64,000 nt of DNA, from the IMG/VR virus record IMGVR_UViG_2811995274_000001, one strand, 5' to 3'. This DNA comes from an uncultured virus (IMG/VR IMGVR_UViG_2811995274_000001) (lineage: Duplodnaviria; Heunggongvirae; Uroviricota; Caudoviricetes). Of this stretch, positions 5,383 through 53,915 are shown piece by piece (the first letter of the stretch is position 1; every line of letters starts with the position of its first letter). Both the position numbers and the translations under genes were made by a program. The notes under the pieces are model-generated. The model searched no databases. It had not been told where the DNA came from and saw only the letters and a list, made by a program, of their open reading frames with translations.

Positions 5383-6383
5383 TTGAATTTGGTGGAGCTA
5401 AAAATGGATTTTTTAGAAGAAATATGTATATATATAATAATGATGTACCATCTATAATTGACCTAATTGATAGATATAATAATACCGATATATATTGCTC
5501 TATATATTCATACGAAAATGATGATATTGAAAATTGTGGTTTATTAGGACCTTTATATTTTGACTTTGATGATGTTAACATAGAAGCAAATTATAAAGAT
5601 GTAAGAAGAGAAGTATATCAATTAATATCTTTATTAAATAGAGAATTTGGCATTCCATTAGATTATATGGAGATATATTTTTCTGGTAATAAAGGTTTTC
5701 ATGTTTTAATTCCACCAGAAGTATTTGGTATAACAAATGATATTGATTTAAATATAAAATATAAAAAGCTTGTTAAGTTGATTGCAAAAGAGTATAATCT
5801 TACCAGATTAGATAATAAGATTTATGATAGAAAAAGATTATTTCGTTTACCTAATTCTATTAATAGTAAAAGTGGATTAAGGAAAATTAAAATAAATCTT
5901 GATTTCTTAATGGATAATGATTTTATTTCTATATTAGAATTAGCAAAAGATCATAACAAAGAAATAATAGTAGAAATTAATAAAGAAATAAAAACAATAC
6001 AAAAAGCTAAAAAAGCATTTGAATATTTATTTTCTCCTATTAAGCATATTAATTATCATGTTAATAAAACAAATAATGTTATACATGATAAAGAACTTTT
6101 ACCATGTATAACTAATATATTAAATACAAGTATTGGAGAAGGCAAAAGAAATAATACGGCTATAGTATTAGCTTCAGGTTTAATACAAACTGGAAGAGAT
6201 GAAAATAGTATTATTGATATGTTAACTAAATGGAATCAAAATAATAATCCTCCTATCCCAGATAGAGAATTATTGAGCACATTTGTTAGTGCAAAACAAA
6301 TGTATCTAAATAATAAGCATTATGGCTGTAGTGCTATAAAAGATTTAGATATGTGTGTAAATACTTGTAAATTTTGTTGTTAA
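5370..6383 (+). CDS. archaeo-eukaryotic primase (AEP) with PriCT-1-like and Cys-rich C-terminus
   Basis: LYFDFD (DxD), FSGNKGFH, RLFRLPNS motifs; GEGKRNN...W...PPIPDREL; terminal Cys cluster. Confidence 0.8.
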   Translation: MARIVEFGGAKNGFFRRNMYIYNNDVPSIIDLIDRYNNTDIYCSIYSYENDDIENCGLLGPLYFDFDDVNIEANYKDVRREVYQLISLLNREFGIPLDYMEIYFSGNKGFHVLIPPEVFGITNDIDLNIKYKKLVKLIAKEYNLTRLDNKIYDRKRLFRLPNSINSKSGLRKIKINLDFLMDNDFISILELAKDHNKEIIVEINKEIKTIQKAKKAFEYLFSPIKHINYHVNKTNNVIHDKELLPCITNILNTSIGEGKRNNTAIVLASGLIQTGRDENSIIDMLTKWNQNNNPPIPDRELLSTFVSAKQMYLNNKHYGCSAIKDLDMCVNTCKFCC

Positions 6384-6394
6384 GGAGATTAAAT

Positions 6395-7450
6395 ATGCTT
6401 AATAATAATTATAAAATAGATGAAATAGAAAAAGAAAATCCTTATATTGTAACTGTAGAAGATTATTACAAATCATCATTAAATGATTATGATAGCTTTG
6501 ATAAATATAGTTGGAATAAAGGAAAAGGTTATAGCTGTCCTAATTTTCCTATTTTTGATGAAAAAATGGAAGGATTAGAAGATGGATTATATCTTTTTGC
6601 AGCAGAATCTAATATGGGAAAAAGTGCTTTTATGAGTAATTTATTATGGGATTATTGTACTAATCCAGATAATAATTTATTTGGAGTATATTTTGCATTA
6701 GATGATACTAAACAAGAAATGATACCTAGATTAATATCTATGTTAGAGTTAATACCTATTTCTATTGCATCTAAGCCTTCTAGATATAAAGAAAAAATTG
6801 ATCTATGCGAAGAAGGAAGTAGTATTTATCAGGAAATGCTTGATAAAAGAGAACATGGATTAAACACCTTAAAAGAGTTAAATACAAGATTTAAATTAGA
6901 AGACTCTGAAAAACTAGATTGTGGAGAAAAAATATTAGATTATTGTAAAAAACTTAAAGAATATTTAAAAGGATATGATCCAAAAACTAATCTAATAATA
7001 GGTATAGATTCTTTATTTGATTTAAATTTTCCTAGTCAAAAATTTAAAACTGATAAAGAAAAGAATGAATATATAGCTCAAGAAATAAAAAGATGGGCTA
7101 AAACTGAAATAAAAGCACCAATATTTGGAACAATCCATTTAAGAAAAATAGATAAAAGAAGAGCTGACATTTCTGATGTAAAAGAATCTGGAAGATATAT
7201 ATATGACGCTTCTGTAGTATTTTTATTGCATAATGATGTTAGTAGGAATGGTCAAAATGCTTCTATATATTATACACAATCAAATTGTGATGAGTTTTTA
7301 CCTATAATAGAATTACAATGGGCTAAGAATAAAAAATCTAGTTTTAAAGGAATAACTTATTATCATCTTATTTCTAATTATTCTAAAGTGATTGAGTGTA
7401 CAGAAGAAGAAATGAAAAGATTTAACAATTTAAGATTTTCTTCTAAATAA
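6395..7450 (+). CDS. DnaB-like (SF4) replicative helicase
   Basis: Walker A AAESNMGKS, IGIDSL, DVKESGRYIYDASVV, WAKNK; start moved to the ATG at 6395 after AAGGAG. Confidence 0.8.
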   Translation: MLNNNYKIDEIEKENPYIVTVEDYYKSSLNDYDSFDKYSWNKGKGYSCPNFPIFDEKMEGLEDGLYLFAAESNMGKSAFMSNLLWDYCTNPDNNLFGVYFALDDTKQEMIPRLISMLELIPISIASKPSRYKEKIDLCEEGSSIYQEMLDKREHGLNTLKELNTRFKLEDSEKLDCGEKILDYCKKLKEYLKGYDPKTNLIIGIDSLFDLNFPSQKFKTDKEKNEYIAQEIKRWAKTEIKAPIFGTIHLRKIDKRRADISDVKESGRYIYDASVVFLLHNDVSRNGQNASIYYTQSNCDEFLPIIELQWAKNKKSSFKGITYYHLISNYSKVIECTEEEMKRFNNLRFSSK

Positions 7451-7477
7451 ATATAATAAGAAAGTTGGTTTTAAGAT

Positions 7478-7903
7478 TTGTTTAATTGTGCAAAGCAAGT
7501 TAATGTTTTAGGAACTGATTATAGTATTATTATTACTAATGAAGAAAAATTACCAAGGCTTAATGATGAAACAGCTGGACTTTGTTATGTAAACACTAAA
7601 CAAATAGCAATAAATAATTATGAAAATGATGCAATAGATAAATCAGAAGAAAAAGATATATGTATTCAAAAACAAAAAGTATTAAGACATGAAATTGTTC
7701 ATGCATACAGTGAAGAAAGTGGTATATCTAATTTTAATGAAATAGATAATGATTTTATTGTGGATTGGATTGCTAAACAAGCTCCTAAAATGTTAATTTC
7801 TTTTTTAGAATGCGGAGCTTTGTCTGAAGATGTAATAGGTAAAATAACAAAAATTATTAATCATCAATATGACGATAATTTTACTTTTATAGAAAATAAT
7901 TAA
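7478..7903 (+). CDS. HExxH zincin-like phage protein
   Basis: LRHEIVHAY...ESG motif. Confidence 0.6.
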   Translation: MFNCAKQVNVLGTDYSIIITNEEKLPRLNDETAGLCYVNTKQIAINNYENDAIDKSEEKDICIQKQKVLRHEIVHAYSEESGISNFNEIDNDFIVDWIAKQAPKMLISFLECGALSEDVIGKITKIINHQYDDNFTFIENN

Positions 7904-7908
7904 TGTTG

Positions 7909-7965
7909 ATACTGTTACAATCATTTTTAGTTTAATTTTATCGATAGAAATGATTGTAACAGTAT
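7909..7965. repeat. 18-bp perfect inverted repeat (hairpin)
   Basis: ATACTGTTACAATCATTT ... AAATGATTGTAACAGTAT with a 21-nt loop. Confidence 0.85.
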
Positions 7966-7980
7966 TATAAAATTGAAAAG

Positions 7981-8232
7981 GTGATTAAAATAAAATCTAA
8001 AAAACCTCAAGATGTAATTGGATATCAAATACAATGTGCTGATTATCACATGTGCCCTATATGTTATGGGTGTAGATCTTATGATCCATCTTATTATAAA
8101 TGTATAAAATTATGTGGTAATAATTTAAAGAACAATGTTTGTAATACAAAAAAACATAAAGATGACTTAATAGCTAAAATGCTTACTAAAACTACAATAA
8201 ATATAGGAGATTTGATAAATGACAACAGATGA
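7981..8232 (+). CDS. Cys-rich hypothetical protein
   Basis: 83 aa, GTG start, C-x5-CPIC-x2-C...C-x3-C. Confidence 0.6.
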   Translation: MIKIKSKKPQDVIGYQIQCADYHMCPICYGCRSYDPSYYKCIKLCGNNLKNNVCNTKKHKDDLIAKMLTKTTINIGDLINDNR

Positions 8233-8710
8233 GTTACAAGCAATACTTAACGGTGATGCAGGTAAACATATAGAAAATATAAAAATTGATAGTTTAAGAG
8301 AATTTGTTAAAGAATCATTATTGAAATTTGGAGATACTAATAAACTTTTACAATCTAATTTAGTAATTGATTTATTAGAAAAAATGTTAATTAAAAAGAA
8401 ACAAATAAATAAAACAGTTGAACAAAGTTTTGTTGAAGTGTTACGAGTAGCAGGATTATTACATAATTTATTTTTTGATGGAACTGTTACAAGTTTATTT
8501 ATGGCCAGAGAAAAATTGGTTCCTATAGCACGTAAATATAATATACCAGATAACTATATAGGATCAATCTTTCAAACTATAGAATGTCAATTGGGCGAAG
8601 ATACACCTGTACCTCAATGCAAACCAGTACCAGGAACTCCTACAGAATTATTTGCTTGGAGTTGTTGGTATATAGAAGAATTACATAACAATAAAAAAAT
8701 ACCAGAATAA
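8219..8710 (+). CDS. HD-domain-like protein (degenerate, HN)
   Basis: VAGLLHNL helix resembling the AxLLHD motif; GGAG RBS. Confidence 0.45.
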   Translation: MTTDELQAILNGDAGKHIENIKIDSLREFVKESLLKFGDTNKLLQSNLVIDLLEKMLIKKKQINKTVEQSFVEVLRVAGLLHNLFFDGTVTSLFMAREKLVPIARKYNIPDNYIGSIFQTIECQLGEDTPVPQCKPVPGTPTELFAWSCWYIEELHNNKKIPE

Positions 8711-8713
8711 AAA

Positions 8714-9430
8714 GTGGATATAATTAATTTAAATGAAGTACAGTTGTTAGATTTTTTAAAATGTCCAATAATTTATGATTCTGTTAACAATAAAAAAATG
8801 TTAATACATAAAAATAATATTGCTTTAAACAACTTATTAAATAGAGTAAGTAATAATTTCTATTTAAACTTAATTAATGGAAAGGTATTATCATTAGATA
8901 CTATTAAAAACAAATGGGATAATTTATGTTTAAACTATAATCTTTCTTCTCAACAATGTTTAGAAGGAGTTAGTCTATTAATTAAATTATTTAGATGGGC
9001 AAGTAATGAAAGATTAATAATAGCAGATATTAATAGTCCATATGAGTATTCTATTAAAGATAATAATTATTTGATTAACTTTAAAGGAGAAATATCTACT
9101 ATAGCAATTAACTCAAATAATGTTCCATATTTATTAGTAACTGATTTTAATAATAAAAACCCTAAACAGACATTGTTGGATATTAAAATTAAGTACACAT
9201 TAGATTGTTTTGCTTATTGGAAAATAACAAATCAAAAATTAAAAATTAGAGTTCATCATATAAAAAGCAATAAAGATTATTTTACTGATAGAAATGATAT
9301 TGATTTTAATAGATTGGAAAAGACAATTAAAAATGTTGTATTTAGTATAAAAAACAATATATATTATCCAAGAGAAAGTGTTTTGTGCCCTAGTTGTGAA
9401 TTTGTTAATTTTTGTCGAGCTTGGTATTAA
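8714..9430 (+). CDS. PD-(D/E)XK Cas4/AddB-like nuclease-fold protein with a 4-Cys cluster, degenerate
   Basis: N-terminal DFLKCP and C-terminal YYPR..CPSCEFVNFC; catalytic region reads GEIS...TDFN. Confidence 0.65.
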   Translation: MDIINLNEVQLLDFLKCPIIYDSVNNKKMLIHKNNIALNNLLNRVSNNFYLNLINGKVLSLDTIKNKWDNLCLNYNLSSQQCLEGVSLLIKLFRWASNERLIIADINSPYEYSIKDNNYLINFKGEISTIAINSNNVPYLLVTDFNNKNPKQTLLDIKIKYTLDCFAYWKITNQKLKIRVHHIKSNKDYFTDRNDIDFNRLEKTIKNVVFSIKNNIYYPRESVLCPSCEFVNFCRAWY

Positions 9431-9466
9431 TGATAATACTAACAAAAAAGAAAGGTAGTATATTAA

Positions 9467-9625
9467 ATGTTAGAAATAAAAGAATATGTTGGTAATAAAC
9501 CAAAAGTATTAAGTAATAATAAAAATGAAAAGGTTAATAACGTTACTCCGAAAGAAGGTGATGTAAAGATGGCTAGATGTGGTGGCGGCAAGAAAAAAGG
9601 CTCCAAAAAAGGAGGAAAAAAATAA
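9467..9625 (+). CDS. small basic protein (52 aa), possible internal 18-aa product MARCGGGKKKGSKKGGKK
   Basis: Not in the ORF track; GAAAGG RBS; TAATG-coupled to groES; second RBS GAAGGTGA before the ATG at 9569. Confidence 0.6.
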   Translation: MLEIKEYVGNKPKVLSNNKNEKVNNVTPKEGDVKMARCGGGKKKGSKKGGKK

Positions 9626-9912
9626 TGATTGAACCTATCGGAAGTAGAGTTTTAATTAAACCAAAAAAAATGGAAACTACTACTAAAGCAGGTATTTATT
9701 TACCTTCTAACAAAGATCAAAATCAGCAAATAGGAAAAGTTATCGCAGTTGGAGAAGGTCATATGCTTGAAAACGGTACTAGAGCTTCTTTAATGGTAAA
9801 AAAAGATGATTTAGTTATATTTTCTAAATTTGCTGGTACAAATATTACTGATAATGATGAATCTTATTTGTTAATAGAAGAAAGAGATATATTAGCAAAA
9901 ATACATAATTGA
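9625..9912 (+). CDS. groES: co-chaperonin GroES
   Basis: IEPIGSRVLIK, TKAGIYLP, GKVIAVGEG, FSKFAGT, ERDILA; true start 9625 after AGGAGG. Confidence 0.93.
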   Translation: MIEPIGSRVLIKPKKMETTTKAGIYLPSNKDQNQQIGKVIAVGEGHMLENGTRASLMVKKDDLVIFSKFAGTNITDNDESYLLIEERDILAKIHN

Positions 9913-9937
9913 TATTAAAAAGAAAGAGGTTTTATTC

Positions 9938-10504
9938 ATGACTAAAAGAACAAAAAAAACATATATTGTAGACAATATAGAATATGGATCAAAAACTCTT
10001 TTAAATTATCACATGATATTTTCTGAAGCTATTAAAAATAATATTATTAGTAATTTTACTTTACCTACAGCTATTACAAGAACTAAATATGGTTCTTGTA
10101 AAGCTATGGTAGATGGAATAGAATTTGACTCTCTTATGGAAGCTAGATATTATATCTATTTACAATATTTATTAAAACAAGGATATATAAAATCATTTCA
10201 ACGACAAGTTAAATATCTATTACAAAAAGGATATGTAAATAACGTTGGTAAAAAAATTCAGGCTATAGAATATATTGCTGATTTTACAGTTACTGATATT
10301 AATGATAACTTAACAGTAGTAGATGTAAAAGGATTAAAAACAGATATTTTTAAAATAAAAGAAAAAATGTTTGGATATGTATATCCTATGTATAATTTTT
10401 TATGCGTACAATGGTCAGATAAGCATAAAAGATGGATAGATTTAGACATAATACAAAAAGAAAAAAGAGACGCCAAAAAGAATTTATTAAGAAGGGCAGG
10501 ATAA
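9938..10504 (+). CDS. DUF1064-family PD-(D/E)XK nuclease-like protein
   Basis: VDGIEFDSLMEARYY, YIADF, VVDVKG..T..FKIKEKMF. Confidence 0.8.
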   Translation: MTKRTKKTYIVDNIEYGSKTLLNYHMIFSEAIKNNIISNFTLPTAITRTKYGSCKAMVDGIEFDSLMEARYYIYLQYLLKQGYIKSFQRQVKYLLQKGYVNNVGKKIQAIEYIADFTVTDINDNLTVVDVKGLKTDIFKIKEKMFGYVYPMYNFLCVQWSDKHKRWIDLDIIQKEKRDAKKNLLRRAG

Positions 10505-33541: not shown

Positions 33542-34366
33542 TTAAAGTTTAAACTTTTGCAAACAATTAATATTATCAAAATCATTACTTAATAAACAAT
33601 CAATAAAACCAGAAGCAGATGTTTGAATCAATTTGCTAATAATATTAGTTTTTTGTTTTTCATATTTAATATTAATTTTACTTCTGTCTGTTGATAATTT
33701 TTTACATAATAGCTCAATAGCGTCATCATATGTTCCAATTTTATCAATTAAACCGTATTGTAAAGCTGTTCTGCTAGACAATACTCTACCATCTAATACT
33801 TCATCAATATTATCAGACATCTTATCTTTTCTAGCTTCTTTTACAATATTAATAAAATTTTGATGACATTCAGACACGAGATCTTGAACAAGTTTTCTTT
33901 CTTCTTCATTCATATCTTTAAAAACGTTGCAAATATCTTTCATGTTTCCCGATTTAATAGTTGTTACATCAATACCAATTTTATCTTTTAATTTACTAAC
34001 ATTTGGGATTGTCATTATAGCTCCAATTGATCCAACAATTGACATATTAGATGCTATAATTTCATTAGCACCACAAGCTATTAAATAAGCGCCAGAACAT
34101 CCTGTATTACCAATAGAAGCTATAACTGGTTTTTTAGATGCAATATGCTTAACTGCTTGATAAATCTCTTCAGAGGTTCCAGCAGCGCCTCCAGGACTAT
34201 CTAATCGCAATAAAACACCATCTATCTTTTCATTATTAGCTATATTATTTAATTCATCTAATAATTCAATAGTATTTTTTTTCTTAGAAAATCCATTTTT
34301 TCCATAAGCTTTAATAATTCCCTCAATAGTGATTACTTCAATATTTTTTTGTTTAAAAAATTTCAT
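33542..34366 (-). CDS. sppA: S49 peptidase (SppA-like signal peptide peptidase)
   Basis: LRLDSPGG, CSGAYLIA, VGSIGA, KSGNMKD, GLIDKIG. Confidence 0.88.
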   Translation of the reverse strand: MKFFKQKNIEVITIEGIIKAYGKNGFSKKKNTIELLDELNNIANNEKIDGVLLRLDSPGGAAGTSEEIYQAVKHIASKKPVIASIGNTGCSGAYLIACGANEIIASNMSIVGSIGAIMTIPNVSKLKDKIGIDVTTIKSGNMKDICNVFKDMNEEERKLVQDLVSECHQNFINIVKEARKDKMSDNIDEVLDGRVLSSRTALQYGLIDKIGTYDDAIELLCKKLSTDRSKINIKYEKQKTNIISKLIQTSASGFIDCLLSNDFDNINCLQKFKL

Positions 34367-34399
34367 TAATAATTCTCCTCTTTTGATACAATAAATTAA

Positions 34400-34420
34400 A
34401 AGACACCAATAAGGTGTCTT
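34400..34420 (-). terminator. short hairpin after the small nrdD-related gene
   Basis: AAGACACC-AATAA-GGTGTCTT. Confidence 0.55.
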
Positions 34421-34425
34421 AATTA

Positions 34426-34692
34426 TTAAATATGTTTTATTCTATCATGTTCTTCAGCTTGTTTAGCATTATTCCATCTATTTAAATCACCTGTTAAATA
34501 GCCTGTAATGCGTCTAATACGTTCAAATTTTGGCTCCTTAATAGTATAATCTACATCTACATCATTATTGTTTTTATTTAAAGAAAAGTAAACTTCAGAA
34601 ATGTTATCAAGTGTACCTTCTTTTTCTTTTAAAGCATTTAAATAATACTCTTGTTCTTTAGCAGACATTTTAAAATTTGATTTTATTTGCAT
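34426..34692 (-). CDS. stand-alone glycyl-radical domain protein (NrdD C-terminal module)
   Basis: FERIRRITGYLTGDLNRWNNAKQAEEHDRIKH; has its own GAAAGG RBS. Confidence 0.88.
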   Translation of the reverse strand: MQIKSNFKMSAKEQEYYLNALKEKEGTLDNISEVYFSLNKNNNDVDVDYTIKEPKFERIRRITGYLTGDLNRWNNAKQAEEHDRIKHI

Positions 34693-34783
34693 TTTATTTA
34701 CAACGCCTTTCTATTTATTATATTTATTTAGGATCACTATTTATATTTTATTGTTTTATTTAGATATATTATTATCTAAAATA

Positions 34784-37039
34784 TTAGTTATTACTATATT
34801 TTTTTAAAGCTAAATGTTTATGTTCTTCTTCTTTTCTATGACAATGAGGGCATTCATTTTCTATAATTCCTGTATAACCACAAATAGGATCACGGTCCAC
34901 AGGATGGTTGATAGAAAAATATCCCATATTAGAATCATGCATACATCTAACTATAGATTCAAAAGCTGTTAAATTTTTTGTAGGATCTCCATCCATTTCA
35001 ACATAACTTATATGTCCTGCATTACATAATTCATGATAAGGAGCTTCAAGTTGAATTTTCTGATAAGCATTAATCTTGTAATATACAGGTATGTGAAAAG
35101 AATTAGTCATATAATTTTTATCAGTTACGCCTTTTATTATTCCATATTCTTTTTGATTAGATTTTTGAAATAATCCTGCTGTTGATTCAGCTGGAGTAGA
35201 AAAAGTACTCCAATTTAAATGTTCATCTTTAGTATATTGATCTGTTTTTTTTCTTATATATTTAATAATTTCAATGCCTAAATCTTGAGACTTAATAGAT
35301 TCTCCATGATGTTTGCCAGTAAGAGCAACTAAGCATTCTGCTAAACCACAGAAACCAATTGATAATGAACAATGTTTTAATACTTCTTCTAACGTATCTT
35401 CTTGTTTTAAATTTTCTGATCCTACAGCTATTTTTTGACCTACAGCAAAAGGAAAATTATATACATGCTTTTTAACTATAATGTTATATCTATATAATAA
35501 ATAGTCATGAGATAGTGTAATATATTTATCTAATAACTCCCAAAATTTATCTATATCTTGTTTAGCTTCTAATGCTAATTTAGGCAAATTAATAGTAGTA
35601 AAACTAAAGTTACCTCTGCCACCAGTAATATCATCACCATTTATGTCTGAAATAACTCTTGTTCTACAACCCATTGTAGCTATCTCACTATTATAATTTC
35701 CTTCTTGATAATATTTTAAGTTATAAGAAGCATCTATATTAACAAAATTAGGGAATAATCGTTTAGCAGAAACCTTACATGCTAATTTAAATAAGTCATA
35801 GTTAGGATCTGTAGTATCATAATTTACTCCTCTTTTTAGTTTGAATATAGAAATAGGAAATATAGGAGTTTCTCCATTTCCTAATCCATCATAAGTAGCA
35901 TTTAAAATTTCTTTTGTTACTAGTCTTCCTTCAGGAGAAATATCTGTACCAAAATTAATAGAACTAAACGGAACTTGTCCACCAGCTCTACTATGTAGAG
36001 AGTTAAAATTATGTATTACTGCTTCCATAGCTTGCTTTGTTTCTTCTTCTATTTTTCTACATGCAATATTATATATTCTATCTGGATATGCACAATCAAT
36101 ATCTGTATCTAATATAGAATTTAATACATAATAAATACTATTGATAGAATTAAAATCAAAATAATACTTCTCATTCTTTAACTTTTCTGTATATCTTATA
36201 GTATACTTATTACATTCTTTTTTTATTTTATCTTTAAAAGTAGTAAAATCTATATTTACATTAGGAATATATCCATAACAAAAATCATATATTGTTTCTA
36301 TCACTATTTTTTTAAAAGATTTTCTTACACCTTCAGCCATTGCATAATCAAAAGCATTAATTGCTTGTCCGCCAAACATATCATTTTGATTTGATTGAAT
36401 AGCGATGCAAGCTAAAGCTGCATAAGAACGAATAGATTGTGGCTCTCTAATAAAGCCATGTCCAGTTGAGAAACCGTTATGCAATAACTTTAATAAGTCT
36501 ATATTCATACAATTCCAACAAATATAAGAAAAATCTTTATCATGAATATGAATGTAGTTAAGATTATCTGCTTCAGCAAATTGAGAAGGTAATGCATATT
36601 TATCTGCCCACGTTTTTGCTCCTTCTGTACCAAGTTTAAGCATTATACCCATTGGGGCGTCTCCATTTATGTTTGCATTATCTCTTTTTAAATCCATGTC
36701 TTTTGCATCAGCAAATAATAAATTAGTATATGATTTCATTAATTTTTGAGCAGCCTTTTTTCTTTCTATATGAACTTTTTGATAAGTTATATATGATTTA
36801 GCTACTTCAAAGAAACCTTTTTGTATTAAATTTTCTTCAATAGATTTTTGAACATCTTCTACAGTTAATAAATTATTTTTTTTTATTAATTGTTTAAAGA
36901 TACTATTAGCTAATTCATGTATTTCTTCTTTATTGATTTTACTTTTAACATCTTTATTTGATTTTGTAATAGTATTTATAATTTTATTTATATTAAAGTT
37001 TTCCATTATTCCAGAACGTTTCATAATTTTATAATGCAT
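34784..37039 (-). CDS. nrdD: anaerobic ribonucleoside-triphosphate reductase large subunit lacking the glycyl-radical loop
   Basis: N-terminal ATP cone, IHIHDKD, TMGCRT, TPAEST, YMTNSFH, GHISYVE, DPICG..CPHC, then stop. Confidence 0.93.
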   Translation of the reverse strand: MHYKIMKRSGIMENFNINKIINTITKSNKDVKSKINKEEIHELANSIFKQLIKKNNLLTVEDVQKSIEENLIQKGFFEVAKSYITYQKVHIERKKAAQKLMKSYTNLLFADAKDMDLKRDNANINGDAPMGIMLKLGTEGAKTWADKYALPSQFAEADNLNYIHIHDKDFSYICWNCMNIDLLKLLHNGFSTGHGFIREPQSIRSYAALACIAIQSNQNDMFGGQAINAFDYAMAEGVRKSFKKIVIETIYDFCYGYIPNVNIDFTTFKDKIKKECNKYTIRYTEKLKNEKYYFDFNSINSIYYVLNSILDTDIDCAYPDRIYNIACRKIEEETKQAMEAVIHNFNSLHSRAGGQVPFSSINFGTDISPEGRLVTKEILNATYDGLGNGETPIFPISIFKLKRGVNYDTTDPNYDLFKLACKVSAKRLFPNFVNIDASYNLKYYQEGNYNSEIATMGCRTRVISDINGDDITGGRGNFSFTTINLPKLALEAKQDIDKFWELLDKYITLSHDYLLYRYNIIVKKHVYNFPFAVGQKIAVGSENLKQEDTLEEVLKHCSLSIGFCGLAECLVALTGKHHGESIKSQDLGIEIIKYIRKKTDQYTKDEHLNWSTFSTPAESTAGLFQKSNQKEYGIIKGVTDKNYMTNSFHIPVYYKINAYQKIQLEAPYHELCNAGHISYVEMDGDPTKNLTAFESIVRCMHDSNMGYFSINHPVDRDPICGYTGIIENECPHCHRKEEEHKHLALKKYSNN

Positions 37040-37050
37040 AAAAAGCTCCT

Positions 37051-37731
37051 CTATTCTAATAATTTTTTATTATTTTTATGTAGAACAAAGAGATGATCTA
37101 TTATATAACGAGACCAAGCTTCAAATTGATAATAATTGTCTACAATCTTTGCCATTGACATCCATTTTCCTTTGAGCTTATTCGTCTCTTTTATAGAAAT
37201 TTTATTATTAAATTTTAATGCATATATAATACCAAAATGTTCTTTAGTTTCACTAATTATATCTCTAACAAATCCTATTAAAGTTTTATTAATGGAATTG
37301 TTATGTATATAAATTTCTTCTTGTATTTCTCTATTAGCAGCACTTTCTATTAAAGAATAATAGTTGTCATTATTTAAACTATACATGTCTTCAATATTTA
37401 TATGCCCTCCAAATCCTAAAGAATATACATTATTTAATCTAGGATCTCCATCTATTCTATAAGATACATACATTTTTGACTCATTCTTATTTAAAATAAT
37501 AGTATAAGGTATGATTTGTTGCATAGCATCATTATATTCAGCATCATATCTAGGAATAAAAAAACCTTTATTCTCGAAAATAGACATAAAATTATTTATC
37601 TGTTTTTTATTATATTTAGATATATCTGTAAATCCATTTGGTACTTTAAATAAATATTTATTTGGAATTACATATACTTTTTCATCTTTATATCTTTTTT
37701 TTAACTCTGTTGATCTCATATGTTCTCTCAT
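37051..37731 (-). CDS. NUDIX-family predicted phosphoesterase
   Basis: QQIIPY, SLGFGGHIN, ANREIQEE, HFGII. Confidence 0.8.
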   Translation of the reverse strand: MREHMRSTELKKRYKDEKVYVIPNKYLFKVPNGFTDISKYNKKQINNFMSIFENKGFFIPRYDAEYNDAMQQIIPYTIILNKNESKMYVSYRIDGDPRLNNVYSLGFGGHINIEDMYSLNNDNYYSLIESAANREIQEEIYIHNNSINKTLIGFVRDIISETKEHFGIIYALKFNNKISIKETNKLKGKWMSMAKIVDNYYQFEAWSRYIIDHLFVLHKNNKKLLE

Positions 37732-53276: not shown

Positions 53277-53915
53277 TTAACAAGCTATTTTTTTATTATA
53301 TTGATACGTCTGTTCTACAACTTGATTGTTTTTAGTAATAAATTTTAAACTATTATTTTTTGATACATAAATTCCACTTAAATCTCGTGCATAAAAACCT
53401 TTAATTTCTTTAGATTGTTGATTAATATCCCAAACAATTTGATTTCCAGATCCTATTGCATCTGTAAAACCATCTCCAAAATCTTCTCTATAAATTCGTT
53501 CATTTTCATCGTATTTACCATCGATTATAATATCAACATAAGGTAAAATATGATTAAATTTATAAAAATTACTTTGGTCATTTAGTGCATAACTACTAAA
53601 AACAATTATATGATAATTAAATTTCTTTAAAATTGAACATACTTCTCCTAATTCTTCTGCTTGATCTAATGGTTCTCCACCGACAAATGTTACGTATTTA
53701 TTAGGAGAATATTTAATAATTTGAGTAGCAACTTCTAATGGTGAATATTCTTTCATACATTTACTAGAATCCCATAAAGAAGGATTAAAGCAGTTTTTAC
53801 ATGGTTCTCCCATAATTGCTCTATTACAACCATATAAAAAAATTTCTGTACGATAATTATTGTAAGGAGATGGACCAGCGGAAGTGCTAGTCCATTTTGC
53901 ATTGTAAATTTTCAT
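53277..53915 (-). CDS. radical SAM protein, NrdG/activase-like
   Basis: GP..RTEIFLYGC..CKNCFNP, TFVGGEPLDQ, DIIIDGKY, GSGNQ. Confidence 0.85.
   Translation of the reverse strand: MKIYNAKWTSTSAGPSPYNNYRTEIFLYGCNRAIMGEPCKNCFNPSLWDSSKCMKEYSPLEVATQIIKYSPNKYVTFVGGEPLDQAEELGEVCSILKKFNYHIIVFSSYALNDQSNFYKFNHILPYVDIIIDGKYDENERIYREDFGDGFTDAIGSGNQIVWDINQQSKEIKGFYARDLSGIYVSKNNSLKFITKNNQVVEQTYQYNKKIAC

Follow-up and report, generated by a model that had tools for sequence, protein, structure and literature searches.

A candidate two-chain class III ribonucleotide reductase in a gut phage, with the NrdD-type glycyl-radical tip encoded by a separate small gene

Anatomy of the split nrdD locus

In the 64,000-nucleotide stretch of DNA analysed here, which stems from an uncultured virus of the Caudoviricetes (IMG/VR record IMGVR_UViG_2811995274_000001) and is referred to as the window, the nrdD gene of a class III ribonucleotide reductase (RNR) is followed by a small gene encoding an NrdD-type glycyl-radical tip (Table 1). 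The large protein matches PF13597 (NRDD, 1.6e-172) and an ATP-cone domain (1.7e-15) in Pfam, and scores 928.8 bits against the NCBIfam equivalog model PRK07111 (cut-off 764; 2.4e-279), covering model positions 2-711 of 746. Residues 53-87 of the small protein correspond to positions 709-743 of the same 746-position model (2.2e-11), and the two proteins therefore meet cleanly on NrdD. In addition, residues 698-738 of the solved P. copri NrdD chain 8p23_A could be aligned with the tip of the small protein (E 2.7e-11), and the only type of Pfam match obtained for this protein is to the C-terminus of PF13597 (9.6e-08); PF01228 (Gly_radical), the pyruvate formate-lyase type, gave no match in Pfam at E<=0.1.

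The sequence features of a class III enzyme are distributed over the two chains. The large chain carries the finger-loop motif ATMGCRT, whose residues M456-R461 (C458 among them) do not vary across 33 truncated NrdDs, and the DPICG...CPHC motif, a putative metal site whose C720, C730 and C733 are invariant in the same set. The RxxGY glycine motif is absent from this chain, which ends 18 residues past CPHC. It is found in the small protein as FERIRRITGYL (KFERIRRITGYL), which contains G64, and both motif and flanks are invariant in 34 homologues. These observations agree with an earlier note on this DNA, which had described an NrdD with ATP cone, finger-loop cysteine and metal-site motif lacking RxxGY, followed after a 91-nt spacer by a separate 88-aa protein with the radical loop. 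A terminator-like hairpin is present after the small gene, and none was found between nrdD and the small gene. The activase named in the same note is real, as indicated by its matches to Fer4_12 (2.3e-16) and phrog_626 (2e-21).

Table 1. Features of the split class III RNR in the window (aa, amino acids; ORF, open reading frame; SAM, S-adenosylmethionine)
Feature	Position	Strand	Basis
nrdD, large (catalytic) chain of the split class III RNR, 751 aa	34784..37039	-	ORF; Pfam and NCBIfam matches
Spacer, 91 nt, AT-rich, stops in all three frames	34693..34783	-	Between nrdD and small gene
Small-chain gene, 88 aa, predicted radical-carrying (stop codon counted in)	34426..34692	-	ORF; profile matches
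N-domain of the small chain, residues 1-52	34537..34692	-	Structure prediction; hhalign
NrdD-type glycyl-radical tip of the small chain, residues 53-88, KFERIRRITGYL...HDRIKHI	34429..34536	-	NCBIfam; alignment; 8p23_A
Codon of Gly64, predicted radical glycine	34501..34503	-	Invariant in 34 sequences
Terminator-like hairpin with T-run, 5 nt past the small-gene stop codon	34400..34420	-	
nrdG-like activase of the radical-SAM type, 212 aa; same replication module, at a distance of 16 kb	53277..53915	-	

The remaining part of the small protein, its 52 N-terminal residues, is unrelated to the NrdD body (hhalign probability 0.2), as the earlier note had also held. It is predicted to fold as strand-helix-strand-strand with a predicted local distance difference test (pLDDT) score of 81-86. 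Comparison of this N-domain with the PDB using Foldseek gave no match at E<=1e-3, and the best hits of a wide VIA-align comparison, HPF-like proteins with Z 4.4, lie in the chance range. Similarly, residues 1-52 were not found in proteins of 155-2000 aa by a word-based search, which is weak evidence.

Distribution of the small protein and of truncated NrdDs

A profile search of 1.84 billion cluster representatives returned 2626 matches at E<=1e-3, ordinary NrdD tips included. Each of the best 150 aligns over most of the profile, which comprises N-domain and tip, and 135 have lengths of 85-151 aa. The other 15, among them P0251 (742 aa), P0141 (562 aa) and P0151 (455 aa), are 184-742 aa long. 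In these the module is located at the C-terminal end or close to it, with no NrdD body and no other Pfam domain; they may be over-long gene calls or fusions. In a separate search limited to 48-154 aa, 1412 of 1425 candidate clusters matched at E<=1e-3. The family is unnamed, the few named copies being labelled 'hypothetical protein', and ESM Atlas clusters of the same size are likewise unnamed.

We surveyed 163 loci, namely the best 80 from bacterial or archaeal genomes, the best 80 from viral contigs and three phage-collection scaffolds, all picked by likeness to the small protein, and the counts are thus not frequencies among all NrdDs. The tip lies on a small frame in 140 of these loci and on an ordinary fused NrdD in 23. 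Directly downstream of an NrdD without glycine motif we find 28 of the 140 small genes, four are located upstream of a truncated NrdD and one downstream of a full-length NrdD, and the remaining 107 have no NrdD in their flanks (76 of them with at least 3 kb on both sides). The gene order is nrdD(truncated)-small-nrdG; of the 29 loci with the small gene behind an NrdD, 23 have NrdG in the flank. The two-gene layout recurs in more than 100 independent assemblies.

Several individual loci are of note. The locus with the full-length NrdD (L028, 2342-5496) combines that gene, glycine motif included, with a 94-aa small gene 29 nt further on and then nrdG, placing two tips with nearly identical 34-residue sequences in one operon. 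At a phage locus (L140, 5968-9985; also L134), a 49-aa tip-only gene devoid of the N-domain lies upstream of an nrdD that occupies two overlapping ORFs (6127-8163 and 8153-9985) and contains extra sequence. Rfam gave no match there, and the locus may represent a three-piece NrdD or an NrdD with inserts. In a related phage whose NrdD is 99% identical to that of the window, a 267-aa ORF is inserted between nrdD and the small gene (L084, 5112-5915), and the small-gene frame there reaches 119 aa.

A profile search of the Selenomonadaceae found the small gene in 143 of 151 genomes of this family, and all listed matches but one (tip only) span most of the profile in a small frame. Among 30 NrdD loci from 41 Selenomonadaceae genomes, 28 are truncated, one is fused and one is cut by a contig end. 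Two subtypes can be distinguished: either nrdD(truncated)-small-nrdG, or nrdD alone with the small gene directly upstream of nrdG, as in seven Selenomonas-type loci with 14-301 bp between small gene and nrdG and nrdD elsewhere. Selenomonas noxia (genome G002) has one NrdD, which is truncated, and one tip, which is on the small protein. In four of the five genomes tested, no member of PF02867, the barrel family of class I and II enzymes, was detected, with the control positive in 12 of 14 reference genomes, and the split enzyme is therefore the only RNR detected in those four. Both NrdD subtypes occur together in one Selenomonadaceae genome (G033, contig C3, 112716-114932 and 165089-167320), where the copy of ~60% identity (L181) is truncated and the copy of ~50% identity has the small gene adjoining. 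The split is conserved, host-derived and widespread and is not peculiar to this phage, which answers the earlier note's call for a search on this point.

A different arrangement is encountered in other Bacillota. In 15 of 17 genomes, a full-length NrdD with its own glycine motif is accompanied by an unlinked small gene; the other two have only a truncated NrdD, one of which ends in ...FERIPRL, just short of the glycine. This latter protein, from an Anaerovoracaceae member (L198, genome G159; tail ...EQFERIPRL), still has a readable FERIRRI strand, its nearest relative in the tree (L199) is fused, and it looks like a recent truncation. The neighbours of unlinked small genes are ordinary chromosomal genes. 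At five loci (L012, 3622-4158; L016, 5427-5963; L042, 5205-7796; L001; L063) the small gene adjoins oxygen-stress genes or metK: rubrerythrin twice, a Crp-like regulator with a flavodiiron-like protein once, and the SAM synthetase gene metK twice. These cases are anecdotal and fit an oxygen-response role.

The regulatory context of the unlinked genes was evaluated using NrdR operators, which are defined as two 16-bp boxes (C4, A6, A8, T9, T11, G13) set 15-16 bp apart (PMC13584703). Paired sites occur within 300 nt upstream of the small gene at 24 of 55 bacterial unlinked loci, compared to one of 3257 control windows from the same loci and one of 50 viral loci. A single-box scan with a consensus sequence identified 23 of the 55 loci versus a mean of 0.5 after shuffling and 10 of 687 AT-matched windows. 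The small gene is thus part of the NrdR regulon in relatives with a complete NrdD. No paired NrdR boxes by the published criteria are present near nrdD or the small gene within the window.

A third situation is found in phages, where four of five other records carry the small gene without an NrdD body; three of these four are estimated to be 100% complete and one 97%. It is plausible that the small protein of the window could also serve a host NrdD, because these records carry the small gene alone.

To relate truncated and fused NrdDs, we compared their C-terminal ends. The distance from CxxC to the radical glycine is 16-19 residues in 38 fused NrdDs, and 43 of 60 truncated NrdDs end 16-21 residues past CxxC, many of their tails keeping a degenerate FERIRRI strand such as GRFTVKRMK. 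Oxygen cleaves glycyl-radical enzymes at the radical glycine, according to a review (PMC13450708). The truncated chains, most of which end approximately at the position of this glycine, would thus be similar to the product of cleavage by oxygen, which is the form that a spare part would have been selected to bind.

A FastTree phylogeny was built from 98 NrdD cores cut at CxxC, so that the columns of the fused/truncated trait were left out. It needs nine changes between the fused and truncated states, of which strongly supported branches force at least eight, compared to a mean of 30.5 with shuffled labels; being a single quick tree from a biased sample, it gives a rough number of events. The NrdD of the window belongs to a clade of 23 members with 100% local support, which comprises Selenomonas-type chromosomal genes and phage genes, and all 23 are truncated. 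Re-fusion was considered for fused NrdDs nested among truncated ones and was dropped, the linkers being of normal length (16-17 residues) and free of an N-domain insert.

The phage itself is a large gut phage. The window is the replication and nucleotide-metabolism module of its AT-rich genome (24.8% GC) and encodes DNA polymerase, helicases, primase, NAD-dependent ligase, thymidylate synthase, a UvsX-like recombinase and topoisomerase II besides the NrdG-like activase. The nearest virus record in the collection searched (G001) is a 221,928-bp contig, estimated to be 94% complete, with the same two genes ~1 kb apart. A small protein 99% identical to that of the window is also on record for an assembly of Megamonas rupellensis. 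Directly upstream of nrdD, a gene at 37051-37731 (minus strand) encodes a 226-aa protein with a weak NUDIX match (E 0.013, below cut-off) and a match to phrog_8902 (function unassigned); it might act as an enzyme of the nucleotide pool. On the downstream side, the small gene is directly followed at 33542-34366 (minus strand) by the gene of an S49-family peptidase (1.7e-43; PHROG 'head maturation protease'), an exception in a module otherwise devoted to replication and nucleotide metabolism.

A two-chain reductase and its alternatives

On the basis of these sequence comparisons, we consider it highly probable that the phage makes a two-chain class III RNR in which the 88-aa chain supplies the missing glycyl-radical tip. 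The best reading of the whole is an obligate two-chain enzyme whose radical subunit would descend from a spare part. The earlier note had likewise read the locus as an obligate two-chain RNR, the radical carrier being a chain of its own, and this proposal is now supported by the conservation of the layout in near-identical phages and in most Selenomonadaceae chromosomes, as well as by the RNR content of the genomes tested. In the model that we favour, the 751-aa chain would provide the ATP-cone and the Cys/metal site as well as the barrel, in which the thiyl-radical cysteine resides. While the small protein is still free, NrdG would abstract a hydrogen from its Gly64, and the tip would then insert into the barrel beside Cys458 of the large chain. 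The folded N-domain would add a binding surface that stabilises docking on NrdD or recognition by the activase, and upon oxygen damage only the 88-aa chain would need replacing. The family as a whole would consist of autonomous NrdD-type radical proteins, acting as a spare part beside a complete NrdD in many Bacillota; in the Selenomonadaceae and their phages, the small protein would have turned into the only radical carrier.

Several points weigh against this model. The tip modelled alone is of low confidence and floppy (pLDDT 51-56), and the N-domain has no assigned role. The earlier note had credited the small gene with its own ribosome-binding site; a purine-rich AAAGG is indeed present, but it lies 13 nt before the ATG and is thus rather distant for this function. 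In addition to the way in which the loci were picked, many of the genomes are incomplete metagenome assemblies, and statements such as 'only truncated NrdD' or 'no other RNR' may be wrong for some of them. Deoxynucleoside salvage may also be possible.

An alternative is that the small protein is mainly a 'spare tip' for the NrdD of the host, the truncated NrdD of the phage being inactive or decaying. The phage records with the small gene alone fit this explanation, as does the high conservation of the tip sequence between phage and bacterial copies. The frame of the phage NrdD, however, is intact over 751 aa and retains every invariant catalytic residue; the protein is 97-99% conserved in related phage contigs and it groups within the strongly supported, all-truncated clade that includes chromosomal genes; moreover, the phage retains its own activase. 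We regard this alternative as very unlikely. The small protein might also be a regulator or decoy competing for the activase or for the NrdD pocket, tuning RNR and not acting as the catalytic radical carrier, and two observations can be cited in favour of this: the small gene belongs to the NrdR regulon also in genomes with a complete NrdD, and no role is assigned to the N-domain. In Selenomonas noxia, on the other hand, the single NrdD-type glycine motif sits on the small protein and is missing from the only NrdD, and the radical glycine and its flanks are invariant, as expected of a working activase substrate; a role as regulator or decoy is accordingly very improbable in our view.

It could further be argued that a single chain is after all made from the two ORFs, through an intron, an intein, frameshifting or read-through, or that an assembly error has created the split. 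There are ~290 nt of extra sequence between the homologous parts, and phage nrd genes can hold introns and inteins, T4 nrdD being an example. Against rejoining, the spacer holds three to seven stops in every frame, and the additional coding sequence has a start codon of its own and encodes a conserved N-domain that is predicted to fold. In an Rfam scan of 34200-35200, no intron family was matched at E<=10, and the four matches obtained are at chance level, one of them being the terminator hairpin. In relatives, the two genes are separated by other genes (the 267-aa ORF described above or, in another phage, an endolysin-like gene), unlinked or in reverse order. Searching for reads at the junction gave only ~20-nt pieces for X1 and X2 and nothing for X15, and a single bridging contig (X9) was obtained; this contig, an independent one from wastewater, covers 34600-34986 and shows five substitutions but no indel. 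The earlier note had reckoned with an assembly error joining the two genes, which does not hold in view of this contig and of the independent assemblies with the same layout. The split is neither an assembly error nor an intron, and any form of rejoining appears extremely unlikely.

Beyond the two-chain enzyme of this phage, a broader scenario can be formulated, for and against which we see the balance as even. Here, the small protein would be the first autonomous glycyl-radical cofactor beyond pyruvate formate-lyase, an NrdR-controlled spare tip that re-arms oxygen-cleaved NrdD, a role kept in many Clostridia. The tip of NrdD would then have been lost at least eight times, giving rise to obligate two-chain reductases with a large chain that mimics the cleavage product, and phages would carry either all three genes or the tip alone, in the latter case re-arming the host enzyme.

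Relation to known systems and significance

The catalytic body with ATP-cone, finger-loop cysteine and Cys site, the tip sequence and the radical-SAM activase are the same as in one-chain NrdD plus NrdG of P. copri (8p23). Phage T4 and E. coli also have a one-chain class III NrdD with NrdG. In contrast to one-chain NrdD, the tip is here on a second polypeptide with an extra N-domain, and the large chain ends approximately at the position of the radical glycine.

Close parallels are GrcA/YfiD of E. coli and Y06I of phage T4, presented in the review as autonomous glycyl-radical cofactors for pyruvate formate-lyase (PMC13450708). Like GrcA/YfiD, the present protein is small, stands alone, carries the radical tip of its parent enzyme and is also found in phages; it is encoded apart from a complete parent enzyme in the 15 Bacillota genomes mentioned above, and the strand retained by the parent overlaps the spare part's own copy. 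Unlike GrcA/YfiD, its tip is of the NrdD type and not of the pyruvate formate-lyase type, and the protein, having no PF01228 match, is not a member of the GrcA family. Its N-terminus is predicted to be folded, whereas that of GrcA is described as disordered in the same review (PMC13450708). Furthermore, standing beside a complete parent, as GrcA does, is observed in relatives and not in the window; in this phage and in the Selenomonadaceae the parent has no tip of its own, and the small protein would not be optional. With the small gene beside full-length NrdD and behind NrdR operators, the analogy to GrcA drawn by the earlier note is better founded than when it was first stated.

Two further systems offer partial parallels. 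The class II RNR of Pseudomonas aeruginosa is split into NrdJa and NrdJb (Crona et al. 2015, as cited in PMC9669993). It shares with the present enzyme a C-terminal functional module that is a separate gene product, but it belongs to another class with another cofactor (B12), and the separated part is a Zn-finger/IscU-like reduction module and not a radical carrier. In the class I RNR of Aeromonas phage Aeh1, nrdA is reportedly split by a homing endonuclease into genes-in-pieces. There, too, a phage RNR large subunit is encoded in two genes that work together, as we predict for the present phage, but in that phage a mobile endonuclease gene is responsible for the split, which runs through the catalytic body. 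In the present case, by contrast, the window has no endonuclease, and the split is host-derived, recurrent and frees only the radical tip.

No published split class III RNR or NrdD spare part was found in the literature searched, PMC4390871, PMC9669993, PMC12288474 and PMC11528403 included, subscription journals and supplements lying outside its scope. According to a June 2026 review, formate-lyases are the only enzymes with known spare parts, and their existence for other glycyl-radical enzymes is undetermined (PMC13450708). The small-protein family appears to be the first radical protein of the 'spare-part' kind for an enzyme other than pyruvate formate-lyase and is a concrete, widespread candidate answer to this question. 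The enzyme concerned is essential, and obligate, optional and phage-only versions exist in nature for comparison. For annotation, a truncated nrdD without glycine motif could pass for a broken gene, and the named copies of the small gene carry the label 'hypothetical protein'. An off-enzyme radical carrier would also be a convenient tool for studying NrdG activation. The family may help to explain how strict gut anaerobes maintain the production of DNA precursors after brief exposure to oxygen.

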